DNA of 63,026 bases, filler included, from Octopus bimaculoides (taxonomy: Eukaryota), in the NCBI RefSeq assembly GCF_001194135.2. It is 7 parts of 5 records of this genome, joined end to end, with 100 filler letters (N's around TTAATTAATTAA, not from the genome) between each part and the next. Parts side by side here need not be neighbours in the genome. Positions count along the whole stretch, not along the records: positions 1 to 13,060 come from NC_068988.1; positions 13,161 to 21,848 come from NC_068983.1; positions 21,949 to 30,617 come from NC_068994.1; positions 30,718 to 35,404 come from NC_068996.1; positions 35,505 to 50,764 come from NC_068983.1; positions 50,865 to 60,794 come from NC_068989.1; 1 more part is not named here. One strand, 5' to 3'. Position numbers and translations under genes: made by a program. Position 1 is the first letter of the stretch; each line of letters opens with the position of its first letter. The notes under the pieces are model-generated. The model was not told the DNA's origin. It made no database searches and saw only the letters and a program-made list of their open reading frames with translations. Positions 7,119 to 59,065 of this stretch are shown here, in pieces.

Positions 7119-7166
7119 GTCTTACAGCTGTTTCCGGGATATTCTATATATCCCTTTATCAGAGAC
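7119..7166 (-). ncRNA. Minimal type-I hammerhead-like motif (core CUGAUAA, GUA site)
   Basis: Minus strand: GTCT-CTGATAA-A-GGGATAT-ataga-ATATCCC-G-GAAA-CAGCTGT-A-AGAC. Stem I is 4 bp, stem II 7 bp perfect, and stem III is the perfect palindrome ACAGCTGT. G8 is replaced by A. Confidence 0.7.
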
Positions 7167-7410
7167 GGTCTGAGAAAATGGTTGAGCAATAGTTATTCTA
7201 GGTAAGATATAAATTAGAGAGTGAAGTGGAGGAATGAAAATAGATGTGAGATATTCAGAGATATTGTATCTTCATTTCCATTATTTAGGCAGAATGCTAT
7301 ACATAGAAGATTACTGTACGTTGTGATTAAGTTCCAATAGTATTTAAAATTGGTTATTGCAAGCATAATATTTGTAAACGGTGTTATTGAATCGAAGGTT
7401 TTTTGAAGAA
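7167..7410 (-). mobile_element. Possible decayed PLE 3' end (GIY-YIG C-terminal tail) upstream of the hammerhead
   Basis: Minus-strand YWNLI…FCLNN…ISLN loosely resembles the W-I…LCL-EK…LN tail of PLE endonucleases. Confidence 0.35.
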
Positions 7411-7417
7411 TGAGACA

Positions 7418-7625
7418 GCGGTGAGTTGGCAGAATCTTTAGCACGCTGGGCGAAATATTTAGCGGTATTTCGTCCATCTTTGCATTCTGAGTTCAAATTC
7501 TGCTCAGATCGACTTTGCGTTTAATTCTTCTGGGGTCGACAAATTAGGTACCAGTTGCGCACTAGAGACGATGTAGTCAACTTAGCCTCTACTCCTGGCT
7601 TAGTGCCAAAATTTGAAACCAGTAT
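7418..7625 (+). mobile_element. SINE family B
   Basis: gcggtgagttggcagaatc…gagttcaaattc (box A/B-like)…ggggtcgac…taccagttg; homologous to 52354-52570. Confidence 0.85.
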
Positions 7626-8907
7626 TTTGCCCGAGGCACATGTGATAAGAAATTCTTCGTGATGCGTAGTTTTTAAGCGTGGGTGGCGGAGGAAACAATT
7701 CTGGAGGTAATTATTCACGGTAAATATAGTCATTAGTAACTCTGATGTGCTGTTGATATTTAGATCATGCTCATACAGAAGCTATTATTACAAAACTGTC
7801 CTGAACAAAACCTATTGTTTTTCTCATTTCCCTAGTTGTCTACCAGGTGTGAAGTGTCTTCAAATCACTTCCCATCAACAGCCATAGCATTTTGGAATAT
7901 ATGGAAAGTAAACGCGAGCGTTTTCTGCCTGTGTTTCGTTCTGCTGCATTACTATATTCCCAATGGGAAAATTCAGAAACAGCTGGTCTCTATTAAGCTT
8001 TTCAGAAATGGGAATCTACCTAGTTTCTGAAACATTAACCACGTATAATCTGCAAGGAGAAGAATATAATTGTCATTTCCCTGACATTCTAAATATAAGT
8101 GAAATAAATTCGCTTAACTATTTTATTAGGGAGTTTGGCAAATATTTAAATAGACATAGAGACTGTGTAACAACGTAAAGAAAGAAAAACTGTGTAAATT
8201 GATTACTTGAAATGCTAGCGTTGCTTTATTCATATACGTTCAGGTTTAGCTCTTCAGCAAGAACACAGCAAACAATACAAGCTTTCACTGAGCCATCCAT
8301 CCATCCATCCATCCATACATATATACTTAAAATACATACATGCACACACACACGCCGACATACACACACATACGCACACACACACACGCACACAGATATA
8401 TGTATATATGTATATATATATGTATATATATATNNNNNNNNNNNNNNNNNNNNNNNNNNNNNNNNNNNNNNNNNNNNNNNNNNNNNNNNNNNNNNNNNNN
8501 NNNNNNNNNNNNNNNNNNNNNNNNNNNNNNNNNNNNNNNNNNNNNNNNNNNNNNNNNNNNNNNNNNNNNNNNNNNNNNNNNNNNNNNNNNNNNNNNNNNN
8601 NNNNNNNNNNNNNNNNNNNNNNNNNNNNNNNNNNNNNNNNNNNNNNNNNNNNNNNNNNNNNNNNNNNNNNNNNNNNNNNNNNNNNNNNNNNNNNNNNNNN
8701 NNNNNNNNNNNNNNNNNNNNNNNNNNNNNNNNNNNNNNNNNNNNNNNNNNNNNNNNNNNNNNNNNNNNNNNNNNNNNNNNNNNNNNNNNNNNNNNNNNNN
8801 NNNNNNNNNNNNNNNNNNNNNNNNNNNNNNNNNNNNNNNNNNNNNNNNNNNNNNNNNNNNNNNNNNNNNNTATATATATGTGTGTGTGTGTATGTGTACA
8901 CTATTTT

Positions 8908-9162
8908 TATTGTTTCAGTCATTTGACTGAGGACAGGTTGGAGGACTGCCTTACAGAGATCTTAGTCACAGCAATCTACCCCAGAACTTATTTGTTGTAA
9001 GCCTAGTACTTATTCCATCGGTGTTCTTTGCCGAAAGGCAAAGTCCCGAAGACGTAAACACACCAACATCTTTTGTCAAACGATGGTGGGAGAAAACGCA
9101 GACACAAAAACACACAGGCATAAATATATGCATATATATACGACGGGCTTCTTTTAGTTTTC
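8908..9162 (-). mobile_element. SINE family A tail and middle
   Basis: tgtttcagtcatttgactg…gcctagtacttattccatcgg…cgacgggcttcttt matches 901-1280. Confidence 0.8.
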
Positions 9163-9372
9163 ACCCGCTGTAGTATAGTATCCATAGAACTTAAGGCTTC
9201 AAATTACCTTTCTTCCTTCTGGTTTTGAGAACCCTAATTTCTCAAGATTGGCATTTAGGCAGAGAGTTACGTATCCTAGGGCGAAAATAATTACAGGTAT
9301 AAACATGAACTTGTAATCTGGATAGAGTAACTGCATATATATATGTATGTTATATAAATATATTAACTATAT

Positions 9373-9860
9373 ACACGAAGGTGGCATTGAATGTGAGGCA
9401 AAAGATAACATTATACATTTTATTTGAGAGGAGTCGTTCAACTTATACATATTGGTAAATATCTTCTATACAAAATTAGAACTGCACATAGCTTCCTATC
9501 ACAAGCGAACTTTTAGCCCAATTTTTCAAGTCCCTTGGAAAATTACAGACCTGCTCTTTTGTAGACATTTCTTCACAGCTACTTTACTTCATGTGCTTCA
9601 TCAGATATTTATTTATCATTAAACCAAACAGTTAAATGTCGGCGGGTGCCAGAACAGGATATATGTTGGACAGTGGACCTTTCCGATGTAACGATCAACA
9701 GCTTTGCTGTCAAAATCTTTTCTTTGCACACAATATTTTGGTCAAGGAGTATCGTTTCTAGAATCTTGTGACGGCTTCTCTAAGCATTTTGACTGTCTCA
9801 ATTCAAAGCCTTCCTTTCAAGTTATTGCAACGCCCCAGAAAACCAAACAGACTTACGAAG
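9373..9860 (-). mobile_element. Mariner transposase C-terminal relic with ITR-like end
   Basis: Minus-strand YPVLAPADI*LFG resembles YSPDLAPSDFHLFG; tacacgaaggtggcattgaa at 9371 is ITR-like. Confidence 0.55.
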
Positions 9861-56896: not shown

Positions 56897-57038
56897 TATT
56901 ACGGAGATGTACTTGCATAGCAAGTAACCTGATCTGAGATCGTGTGTTTAAATAAAAACAATTGCAGCGCGGAAGGTGTTTATAAGCCATTTAAAAATAC
57001 ACAAAAACCGTTAGATTCGCTTCAACATTTAAATCTAA

Positions 57039-57110
57039 TTTGCCAAAATATTTTCGTCACTTTGAGATCGCGACCTGATCACGGAATTTTGTCAGTGATC
57101 AGGTCGCGAT
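57039..57110 (-). ncRNA. G3:C8 variant hammerhead-like motif split by a terminal foldback (16-bp perfect inverted repeat)
   Basis: Minus strand: GTGATCA-G-GTCGC-gatctcaaa-GTGAC-GAAA-ATATT-T-TGGCAAA. The missing 5' stem-I strand TTTGTCA plus the core lies on the plus strand at 57088-57107. Arms are 57067-57082 and 57095-57110. Confidence 0.55.
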
Positions 57111-57924
57111 AAATATATATATATATAAGATCTTTTGAATTATATGATATATATAATATATATTACATGTATATATATAATATATATTATATACAGGGTG
57201 CGGACAGTTTTGAGAACATGCACTTTTGGTCGTTATGTTTATGTCTGTTCTTAGATTTAATGAGGTAGGTTAGAAAGAAGAATACGGTCACCGTGTAGTT
57301 TGCATATTAGGAAGTGTTTGGAATTTCTCAAATTAAAGATTCACCTTGTTGATTCTTTCTTGTGTAGAGATTCTGTCTTTACATTGATAGAGAGGGAAAA
57401 TGAGAAATTTGGGATTTTTATTTCTAGCGCAAGAATCTATGTGGCCAATATATATATATATATATANNNNNNNNNNNNNNNNNNNNNNNNNNNNNNNNNN
57501 NNNNNNNNNNNNNNNNNNNNNNNNNNNNNNNNNNNNNNNNNNNNNNNNNNNNNNNNNNNNNNNNNNNNNNNNNNNNNNNNNNNNNNNNNNNNNNNNNNNN
57601 NNNNNNNNNNNNNNNNNNNNNNNNNNNNNNNNNNNNNNNNNNNNNNNNNNNNNNNNNNNNNNNNNNNNNNNNNNNNNNNNNNNNNNNNNNNNNNNNNNNN
57701 NNNNNNNNNNNNNNNNNNNNNNNNNNNNNNNNNNNNNNNNNNNNNNNNNNNNNNNNNNNNNNNNNNNNNNNNNNNNNNNNNNNNNNNNNNNNNNNNNNNN
57801 NNNNNNNNNNNNNNNNNNNNNNNNNNNNNNNNNNNNNNNNNNNNNNNNNNNNNNNNNNNNNNNNNNNNNNNNNNNNNNNNNNNNNNNNNNNNNNNNNNNN
57901 NNNNNNNNNNNNNNNNNNNNATGC

Positions 57925-57994
<70 letters not shown>

Positions 57995-58160
57995 AGAAAG
58001 ATAGATATATTGGTAAATATACATATGTATATCCATGTACATATAGACAAATTGATAAGGAACGACGAATTCAAAAACGAATGCAACAAGACAAAGGGAC
58101 AGCGAATACTAGTAGTTTGGTGCACAATGAAAGTTTTGAAGGAAGAGTTAAAAGTAGGTA

Positions 58161-58765
58161 TAAGAGGTCTGACCAATAAGTATGCGGATTGTTGTCATAG
58201 TAACGACGCTAAAGCACGCAAAGCAAAGCCGCTTGGCAAAGATTTACCTTGGAGTCTGCTGTGCATCGGCACTAAGTTTTGTTGTAGCTCACTTCCGTTG
58301 TTTACTGCAGTGCTTTGAAGTAACATGATCGTCGCATTGAACATGATAGAGAAGGTTGTCATGGTGACACCTGCTCAGAGGCCAACGCAAAGTTGCAGAA
58401 AGTGTATGGAGAGGAGTGTATGAGCCGCACACAAGTATACGAGTGGTTCAGACGTTTCCAAGATGGCCGAAAATATGCTGATATTGACGAACGTTCTAGG
58501 AGACCGGCAACCAGTAGAACTGAGAAAAACATTGCAGATGTGCGTGCAGCTGTGCGGGGAAATCGTTGAATCACCATCCACGAGTTATCAGAGGATGTGC
58601 AGGTTAGTTACGATTCAGCTCAGTCCATTATCGCTGAAGATTTGGGTATGAGATGCGTGTCAAAACTGCTTTCAACTGACCAAGAAGACACTCGGGTTTC
58701 AGTTGCACACAATCTCCGTGATTGTGTCGAGAACGATGAAAACATTTTGAAAACTTTGTGTAGGC
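58161..58765 (+). mobile_element. Mariner (irritans-like) 5' half, decayed
   Basis: KLQKVYGEECMSRTQVYEWFRRFQDGR…ERSRRPATSRT…ITIHELSED…IIAEDLGMR. Confidence 0.85.
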
Positions 58766-59023
58766 TTCTGATCAGGTATCGCCAAGCTTTTGGCAAAATT
58801 TTATGTAGATTCTCTGCTCAACTTTCTCTGTCATTGTCGATGCGACAATCACACGCTACACACCTTCTTTCCAAGCACTGCTCTAAACAGCAGAAGTCAA
58901 CTAGAACGTTAAAACTTGGTGGGCATGCATAGCAAAGTTCAAGGTCAATCTGTGCCAAGCAGCTTTATTATACGTGCTCTAGCTTCGTTATTATAGCAAC
59001 AGTCTGAATACTTATTGATCAGA

Positions 59024-59065
59024 CCACATATGACGTTTCGAGCATGCTTTTTCGTCAGATAGTAG
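59024..59065 (-). ncRNA. Minimal type-I hammerhead-like motif (canonical CUGACGA / GAAACGUC)
   Basis: Minus strand: CTACTAT-CTGACGA-aaa-AGC-at-GCT-c-GAAA-CGT-C-ATA(t)GTGG. ACGU palindrome and GUC triplet; stem II is weak. Confidence 0.6.

Follow-up and report, generated by a model that had tools for sequence, protein, structure and literature searches.

Several hammerhead-like folds can be drawn in the analysed window, a joined stretch of 63,026 nucleotides from Octopus bimaculoides, and some of them depart from the consensus core. This raises the question whether they represent a new ribozyme architecture or known hammerheads of Penelope-like elements (PLEs) that have decayed in the genome. 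Minimal type-I hammerheads of PLEs are reportedly the subject of Lunse et al. 2017.

Hammerhead folds and their comparison with chance

The first-pass annotation had listed six cores and one inverted copy, and all of them are present in the window sequence: CTGATAA at 7156-7162 on the minus strand, CCGATGA at 10943, CAGTTGA at 28219 and CTGATGA at 48605 on the plus strand, GTGATCA at 57076-57082 and CTGACGA at 59052-59058 on the minus strand, and the inverted copy of the 10943 motif with its C3 at 10555 on the minus strand. GAAA...UH lies 3' of every one of the six cores. The proposed extra purine after A9 was seen at all sites, and the additional purine before G12 in the two families for which it had been claimed (G at 7135, A at 10976). 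The residue that separates positions 9 and 10.1 together with the pair G10.1-C11.1 is present at five of the six independent sites; 59052 is without G10.1. The consensus C3UGANGA9...G12AAA15.1...U16.1 H17 is complete at 48605 and 59052 and present at 10943 with the known variant U4C, site 57076 carries G3-C8, and 7162 (C3.A8), 28219 (A4 and U6) and the inverted copy (G15.1) depart from it. Three helices with an open stem I were obtained for 10943, 7162, 48605 and 28219, with stems I and II in the MFE fold, and this layout is absent at 59052, which has no stem II, and at 57076, where a hairpin wins.

Stem III is palindromic at 7162 (ACAGCUGU), nearly so at 10943 (AUCCGGGAU, with G or A as centre base in the family), and reads ACGU twice; the description of most stems III as (near-)palindromic applies to these four, but not to 48605, and 57076 is ambiguous. 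The seven motifs are not all unrelated: the inverted copy is a duplicate, and 28219 and 59052 fit one family model. The estimate of one motif per 9 kb included this duplicate, besides one or more folds that are doubtful, and cannot be kept; this one window holds about five independent loci in 59 kb of called sequence.

As a chance control, the window was shuffled locally 144 times with its dinucleotides preserved, and one fixed score was applied throughout. In this comparison, which had been suggested as a check on the folds, 10943 stood clearly above the null (0/144 shuffles with an equal or better match), 7162 and 48605 did so marginally (7/144 and 14/144), and 28219 (141/144), 57076 and 59052 (144/144 each) were at shuffle level. 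Five real matches scored at least 10 against a null mean of 0.37, and 0/144 shuffles had as many as five; two of the five (57346 and 30916) are not sites of the first-pass annotation and resemble plain hairpins, and the reversed window gave two matches of at least 10 with the same score. Additional candidates at 30916 (minus), 46167 (minus) and 57346 (plus) were discarded as hairpins or for want of U16.1.

Rfam reported no hammerhead at E<=10 for the window among 150 of 154 matches listed, and none in local scans of two sites; the literal 2014 example descriptor of Cervera and de la Pena gave 0 matches in the window. When this descriptor was relaxed to a longer stem III and loop II it retrieved 48605, and allowing for U4C or 3-8 covariation added 10943. 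Strict descriptors thus do miss these motifs, as had been predicted, but not on account of the extra purine: the misses are due to core damage and to a stem III or loop II of greater length.

Could most of these hand-drawn folds be accidental resemblances in a repetitive, AT-rich sequence? The three sites at shuffle level, the folding z-scores of -1.9 to +0.3 and the silence of Rfam would agree with this. For 10943 it is already refuted by the score above all 144 shuffles and by family variants that spare the fold; 48605 stands where PLE biology expects a hammerhead, and 28219 and 59052 fit a family whose core is recovered unprompted elsewhere. Chance as the source of most folds is therefore highly improbable, and it may apply to 57076 alone.

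The 10943 motif and its 466-nt family

The best-supported hammerhead (10937..10995, plus strand) combines a 6-bp stem I and the core CCGAUGA (U4C) with extra A residues at 10950 and 10976, a stem II carrying a 3x3 internal loop, and N17=C at 10989; an A.A mismatch lies at the top of stem II in its family of about 460 nt. It is part of a non-coding PLE-type insertion of a multi-copy family (10379..11175, plus strand), which consists of an inverted copy and a direct repeat. The 193-bp inverted copy (10379-10571) adjoins (TA)n and an N gap and shows six differences from 10927-11119. One of these is A15.1G at 10518 within the inverted hammerhead (10503..10561, minus strand), which is likely inactive; given this near-identity and the broken core, it does not count as an independent seventh motif. 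The direct-repeat unit measures 466 nt, since 10569 recurs at 11035, and the next unit enters the N gap. The unit contains no ORF of at least 90 aa and no match to a PLE protein at E<1e-3 with 151 proteins; a weak match to the N-terminal motif of the PLE RT (E 0.024) was lost at this threshold and was rejected.

The family was mapped with 1842 DNA contigs and 824 RNA reads. Its members are multi-copy, non-coding and about 410-470 nt in size, end in (TA)n and form inversions. Depth peaks over 11126-11157 at the 3' end, loose ends run into (TA)n at 10764 (131 RNA reads) and 11141 (18 contigs), and joints between opposite strands occur in both RNA and DNA. Within the 59-nt motif, six of seven variants fall at free positions and one retains a G-U pair, among 40 of 129 variants listed; the rough P of 0.0016 for this sparing of the fold is too small because of subfamily descent. 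Neither of the two extra A's shows a variant or indel among the 40 of 129 variants and 12 of 15 indels listed. U4C is a genuine family polymorphism: it accounts for about 64% of DNA depth, and the U4 form makes up 81% of RNA reads vs 36% of DNA depth.

The tandem-like, non-coding 466-nt unit with its intact fold and 6-bp stem I could belong to a classical non-LTR retrozyme that cleaves itself in vivo and yields abundant small circular RNA. The short unit with a type-I hammerhead, the more-than-unit arrangement and the PLE-type ends are shared with non-LTR retrozymes and non-autonomous PLE derivatives, and the size agrees with published retrozymes (PMC7229834; Li, Clavereau and Pollet 2026, bioRxiv 10.64898/2026.07.22.740005). 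RNA reads also span the joint 11175-10710 (49, plus a further 49 at -465), but the same joint occurs in DNA contigs and mirrors permuted element boundaries, and a circle and a tandem transcript would share it. In contrast to retrozymes, the copies are mostly dispersed, 5'-truncated and (TA)n-ended, and a sharp drop in depth at 10774-10821 suggests that most of them are not arranged head-to-tail. Between 73 and 81% of the RNA reads continue into unlike sequence, and just 6/824 are at least 99% like the window copy. At the cut site 10989/10990 no pile-up of read ends was found in three RNA runs, which is a weak test and gives no in vivo sign of cleavage. We consider the classical retrozyme unlikely and assign the family to non-coding PLE-type insertions.

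Endonuclease remnants and the remaining sites

A coding remnant of a PLE adjoins one of the six independent sites, 48605, and the other motifs are solo, like most of those published. The remnant (47712..48146, plus strand) represents the C-terminal end of a PLE with a GIY-YIG endonuclease (EN) followed by a stop. Its match to Pfam PF01541 (E 2.9e-4) is below the curated cut-off; 55/151 related proteins match the remnant, and over 50 aa it shares 72% identity with a protein of Octopus vulgaris that bears an RT. At 47748-48146 a C-x4-C-x2-C linker, the GIY-YIG domain and the stop follow each other, which fits the CX2-5CxxC linker of Neptune/Nematis elements. In the closest long homolog the RT lies upstream of the EN; the window itself is without a PLE RT. 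The hammerhead (48599..48643, plus strand, marginal by its shuffles) has the canonical core CUGAUGA, an extra G, a 6-bp stem II, a 2-bp stem III and N17=C at 48638, and its stem III (AGAACU) is not palindromic (self-duplex +1.4 kcal/mol). It is located 459 nt 3' of the EN stop on the same strand, with a 322-N gap between, and (AT)14 follows 151 nt downstream. No scored hammerhead follows the two further EN remnants of the window (15275-15653 and 49888-50307).

The type-I fold at 7119..7166 (minus strand; score 14.3, likewise marginal) consists of a 4-bp stem I, the core CUGAUAA with a C3.A8 mismatch, an extra A, a 7-bp stem II, an extra G and N17=A. The self-duplex of its palindromic stem III reaches -11.1, and (TA)n lies 111 nt downstream of C3.

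Sites 28219 and 59052 are ACGT-type minimal hammerheads. The first (28215..28250, plus strand; core CAGUUGA with U4A and A6U) has an extra A, a stem II GAGC-GUAA-GCUC and (CA)n 125 nt downstream, and its motif is likely damaged or non-cleaving. The second (59029..59061, minus strand; core CUGACGA, N17=C at 59032) appears decayed, with no stable stem II (+5.5 kcal/mol) and G10.1 missing. The seed pattern was derived from these sites, which makes their matches to the family model (E about 7e-5 and about 1e-5) partly circular. A DNA-transposon-like element (58161..59030), resembling mariner, has TA at both ends and terminal inverted repeats of about 200 bp (74% over 213 nt); it sits 2 nt past N17 of 59052, and the downstream tail is displaced.

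A motif search with positions 3-7 left open recovered C[CT]GA at positions 3-6 in 59/80 low-GC metagenome loci and in 0/40 high-GC loci. U4C occurs in 29/80 of the low-GC loci and U6 in 0/80. Stem I covaries in 32 of these loci, where 15 cells carry a change in both strands, compared with 6.1 in shuffled data. The ACGT pattern was found in 0 viral contigs. Sites 28219 and 59052 are probably degraded copies from a widespread ACGT-type family that is also present in other low-GC, probably animal, DNA.

The doubtful fold at 57043..57084 (minus strand) has the core GUGAUCA (G3-C8), an extra G, a 5-bp stem II and a stem I of just 2 bp. An inverted repeat of 16 bp, with its arms at 57067-57082 and 57095-57110, takes in the core and the 5' strand of stem II, and the MFE of the region is -33.1, against -4.4 when it is folded like a hammerhead (z +0.32). 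The similarity of 48605 and 57076 (score 46, 0/2000 shuffles) is equalled by unrelated AT-rich tiles of the window and is therefore suggestive at most; for 57076 this leaves decay from a relative of 48605, or a chance fold. Using the stem II pattern of these two sites we obtained 120 viral loci, 0 with a CUGANGA or GUGANCA core, and so no G3-C8 family outside the window. Over all motifs, four of seven have (TA)n or (CA)n within 250 nt downstream, compared with 17.8% of random positions.

Penelope-like tails or a new hammerhead class

The extra nucleotide between 9 and 10.1 is a named conserved feature of PLE hammerheads, and the published descriptor permits 'extra N10' and also 'extra N11', an extra base before G12 (PMC4209133). 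Covariation of positions 3 and 8 and palindromic stem III have been described in PLEs as well (PMC4209133), so neither the extra purines nor the 3-8 covariation constitute the new architecture that had been proposed. Short stem I, absent stem III in some cases and many solo 3' copies are further common traits of these minimal hammerheads and the window. The Acropora digitifera Neptune row of the same alignment has nearly the design of 28219 and 59052, the Saccoglossus and Aedes rows have a longer palindromic stem III as at 7162 and 10943, and the Nasonia row has an extra G as at 48605. The window differs in that the published covariation is U3-A8 and that of 57076 G3-C8, in the longer stem II of 10943 with its internal loop, and in its host, as the 56 rows include no cephalopod. 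Neptune/Nematis-type EN+ PLEs (Craig et al. 2021, PMC8557442) agree with the window in the linker and C-terminal GIY-YIG, in microsatellite targets and in an inverted 5'-truncated copy beside a partial tandem; there, RT, linker and GIY-YIG follow in this order and the hammerhead lies in the 3' pLTR. The window has EN-end remnants only, and the likeness is based on EN and linker, not on an RT tree.

We could imagine a new hammerhead class in which active families have fixed the odd cores (C3.A8, A4/U6, G3-C8), along with the paired extra purines, as their design. The share of U4C in the DNA of the 10943 family, the lack of listed variants at its two extra A's, the occurrence of CUGAUAA at two scored sites (7162 and 30916) and the partial rescue of activity by G3-C8 in a PLE hammerhead (PMC11167929) are in line with this. 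But both insertions are within the 2014 descriptor, with AGAAA in one of the 56 rows (PMC4209133), U4C is already known from nature (PMC3088659), U6 is missing from all 80 related low-GC loci, C3.A8 breaks the 3-8 pair, and the G3-C8 site scores no better than chance and is trapped in a hairpin. Literature searches found no natural G3-C8 hammerhead family, the cases examined being engineered mutants, no paper on an extra base before G12 beyond the descriptor of PMC4209133, and no report of PLE hammerheads in a cephalopod genome. A new class is accordingly very unlikely, and as a design of a family only U4C has been shown; the other core variants, which had also been taken as such, are known from single copies.

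The five loci with hammerhead folds or relics are likely 3' pseudo-LTR ends of several PLE families, and most non-consensus core letters were likely acquired by decay after insertion. The earlier assignment to ribozyme-bearing retroelement families is supported for most of the motifs: one motif lies behind a PLE endonuclease, one belongs to a multi-copy family with PLE-type ends, and two fit a family found elsewhere. G8A (7162), U4A with A6U (28219), A15.1G (inverted copy) and the loss of G10.1 (59052) are best read as such decay, judged from single copies at the sites other than 10943, the one site with family data.

Following published PLE biology, tandem PLE RNA would be transcribed, and two hammerheads would dimerise via palindromic stem III and may cut weakly, probably with help of the PLE protein. 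This protein would nick AT-rich or (TA)n DNA, and reverse transcription would begin inside the RNA, about 130-240 nt beyond the cut site. For one PLE, whose hammerhead is active in vitro, an internal RT start, protein-assisted cleavage and a lack of RNA-seq ends at the cut have been described (PMC11167929). The outcome would be 5'-truncated, at times inverted copies, of which the hammerhead-bearing tail is the part that survives. The 466-nt family would be a non-LTR retrozyme or a non-autonomous derivative of PLEs that borrows the PLE protein.

Taken together, the findings extend PLE hammerheads to octopus, add no new kind of thing, and show that Rfam misses PLE hammerheads in the window. There is a small chance that octopus-type PLE families with fixed new cores exist, namely G3-C8 (57076), a high-copy U6 for A6 (28219) and the A.A/U4-C4 family of about 460 nt; this would point to catalysis that tolerates more variation when a protein assists it, or to PLE tails that spread without cleavage. 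The young non-autonomous family with its natural U4/C4 polymorphism, possibly together with broken-core families, offers a natural comparison for the role of cleavage in spread.

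Hammerhead folds and their standing against chance

The six cores described in the first-pass annotation were all found in place, as was the inverted copy of one of them; each site is named here by its core position. On the plus strand, 10943 (10937-10995) can be drawn with a 6-bp stem I, CCGAUGA, an extra A, a GGC/AAA/GCAU hairpin, an extra A, AUCCGGGAU and C17; 28219 (28215-28250) with CAGUUGA, an extra A, GAGC-GUAA-GCUC, ACGU and A17; and 48605 (48599-48643) with CUGAUGA, an extra G, a 6-bp stem II, AGAACU and C17. On the minus strand, 7162 (7119-7166) has a 4-bp stem I, CUGAUAA, an extra A, a 7-bp stem II, an extra G, GAAA, ACAGCUGU and A17; 57076 (57043-57084) has GUGAUCA, an extra G, a 5-bp stem II and a 2-bp stem I; and 59052 (59029-59061) shows CUGACGA, ACGU and C17 but lacks a stable stem II. 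The proposed set of seven folds holds in part: the cores are present, 28219 and 59052 appear damaged, the inverted copy (10503-10561, minus strand) has six changes over 193 positions relative to 10927-11119, one of them A15.1G, and the hammerhead at 57076 is doubtful. At 57076 the core and the 5' strand of stem II together make up an arm of a 16-bp inverted repeat, whose fold is favoured by ~29 kcal/mol over the hammerhead-like one. The likeness of 57076 to 48605 is no greater than that of background tiles, and a stem II pattern search, whose matches were viral loci, found no G3-C8 family outside the window.

A descriptor with the strict core and insertions gave 1 match versus 0.05 in shuffles (2/40 equalled the real sequence), and one allowing a single core deviation gave 4 versus 1.45 (3/40). 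Using a fixed score of core deviations, stem II energy and stem I and III pairs, 10943, 7162 and 48605 ranked first, second and third among 1,218 candidates. Of 144 block shuffles, 0, 7 and 14, respectively, produced a match at least as good; for 28219, 57076 and 59052 the counts were 141, 144 and 144, which is chance level. Hammerheads were absent among the 150 of 154 Rfam matches listed for the window and from local Rfam scans of 48560-48700 and 10925-11030.

Immediately downstream of the 7162 motif a 31-bp TA-containing stretch occurs twice (6798-6828 and 7022-7052), flanking a (TATC)n run and an N gap; it may represent a target duplication or an assembly artefact. At 30860-30924 (minus strand) CUGAUAA and GAAAGUUA occur with an 8-bp closing stem (score 10.7); this core pairs into its own hairpin, and the stretch sits between the reverse transcriptase (RT) fragment 31006-31404 and (CA)n. 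The hammerhead-like stretch at 46140-46170 (minus strand; CAGACGA G GGGA-UAC-UUCC GAAAC, without U16.1) is probably due to chance.

Copies and variation of the 10943 family

The 10943 locus consists of a 193-bp inverted copy adjoining (TA)n and a 466-nt direct-repeat unit, the same layout as in PLE insertions described in PMC8557442. Reads from three RNA runs and contigs from one DNA run were mapped to 10710-11175 at 82% likeness, with 296, 319 and 209 reads and 1,842 contigs aligning. Depth peaked at 11126-11157 and was lowest over 10774-10821. Ends without a match continued into (TA)n at 10764, in 35+51+45 reads, and at 11141, in 18 contigs; joints between opposite strands were present in RNA and DNA. 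Taken together, these features indicate that the family copies are mostly dispersed and 5'-truncated, ending 130-240 nt beyond the cut site, in agreement with the internal RT starts of the PLE in PMC11167929. No pile-up of molecule ends was found at the cut site in the three RNA runs, 73-81% of the RNA reads continue into unlike sequence, and only 6/824 are 99+% like the 10943 copy; the RNA therefore derives mostly from other family copies within longer transcripts.

Among the 40 of 129 family variants listed, seven lie in the 59-nt motif. U4 at window position 10944 was carried by 101/125 RNA reads (81%) and 36% of DNA depth, a disparity that could reflect few expressed loci or different individuals. 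The others are three in unpaired stem II loops, C17>U, G>A at the palindrome centre (53% of DNA depth) and a C>U that retains a G-U pair. Six of the seven fall at the 17 free positions (rough P 0.0016, too small given subfamily descent), and neither extra A showed a variant or indel among those listed. The core variants had been proposed as family designs; this mapping establishes family-level status for U4C alone. Within the internal loop of stem II, the AAA strands opposite each other (10954-10956 and 10970-10972) both have the middle A changed to G, at similar DNA depths of 16.9k and 16.2k, which suggests a candidate AGA/AGA subfamily with possible tandem sheared G.A pairs.

ACGT-type sites and PLE remnants

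A search pattern fixing only G8-A9-A-GAGC...GCUC-GAAACGU, the minimal type with an ACGU stem III, matched at least 120 metagenome loci. Among the matches listed, C[CT]GA stood at the free positions in 59/80 low-GC loci (U4C in 29/80, U6 in 0/80), and the core in 0/40 high-GC loci. In 32 of the 59, picked for diversity, stem I covaries, with 15 double-change cells versus 6.1 after shuffling (0/500 shuffles; kinship ignored). The only matches below E 1 to a model from these loci were 59052 (E ~1e-5) and 28219 (E ~7e-5), and they are partly circular because the seed pattern was derived from these sites. Both are therefore taken as damaged members of a widespread design. A TIR element is inserted 2 nt after N17 of 59052. 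A tail like that behind 28219 follows an N gap at 11719-11775 (plus strand), with (TA)n next; this would be a second 28219-like copy, its hammerhead position falling inside the gap.

An ORF at 47748-48146 (plus strand) encodes a PLE linker (C-x4-C-x2-C) and GIY-YIG endonuclease (EN; Pfam E 2.9e-4, below the curated cut-off). Its stop lies 459 nt before the 48605 core, and (AT)14 starts 151 nt past the core. The single long homolog, an 803-aa Octopus vulgaris protein (72% over 50 aa), carries PLE RT motifs in its upstream part; 55/151 of its relatives match window 47712-48137, and five long relatives among those listed end C-terminally in linker and GIY-YIG. This order, with RT upstream, is the Neptune/Nematis layout as presented in PMC8557442. 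Two more decayed linker/GIY-YIG remnants (15275-15653 and 49888-50307, plus strand) have no scored or recognisable hammerhead downstream, and no PLE coding remnant was found near the other motifs at E<1e-3. A dinucleotide run follows within 250 nt downstream of 4/7 motifs versus 17.8% of random positions (hand binomial P ~0.02).

The window (63,026 nt; GC ~36%; 3,893 N in 23 gaps) is rich in microsatellites and short repeats. It also contains a mariner transposase fragment (Mos1-type HTH; 56404-56679, minus strand; Pfam HTH_48 E 6e-14), decayed non-LTR retrotransposon-like coding fragments (23595-25767, plus, and 31006-31404, minus; judged RT-like on inspection, the latter with an RVT_1 match at E 0.01) and several copies each of two dispersed short-repeat, SINE-like families (895-1102, 8891-9160, 16639-16867, 30107-30575 and 55776-55843; 7418-7582, 20717-20825 and 52093-54086).

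Relation to published PLE hammerheads

The shared extra purine is the known PLE signature and no new architecture: the descriptor of Cervera and de la Pena 2014 (PMC4209133) permits 'extra N10' and 'extra N11'. That study counts about 1,300 motifs with U3-A8 and finds that solo copies run into the thousands per genome; AGAAA is present in 1/56 rows. Natural U4C, U3-A8 and A6C are noted in Perreault 2011 (PMC3088659). According to Frangieh 2024 (PMC11167929), either C3G or G8C by itself inactivates a PLE hammerhead and G3-C8 partly rescues it, protein is required for cleavage, in vitro insertion does not require cleavage, and the RNA-seq described there lacks ends at the cut. Li et al. 2026 (bioRxiv 10.64898/2026.07.22.740005) derive animal retrozymes from PLE pseudo-LTRs and report cleavage in 1/9 dimers tested; related literature includes PMC7229834, PMC6765202, PMC6155905, PMC3884650 and PMC6962438. 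Our literature search found no report of octopus PLE hammerheads or of a natural G3-C8 hammerhead, and Lunse 2017 may already cover the window variants.

The folds and the EN remnant are established in the window, as are, in one family, PLE-type ends and fold-sparing variation. Cleavage would be dimeric and protein-assisted, insertion at TA repeats would be TPRT-like and start from internal sites, and solo copies would then decay neutrally. The hammerheads of the window extend the already known PLE hammerhead type.
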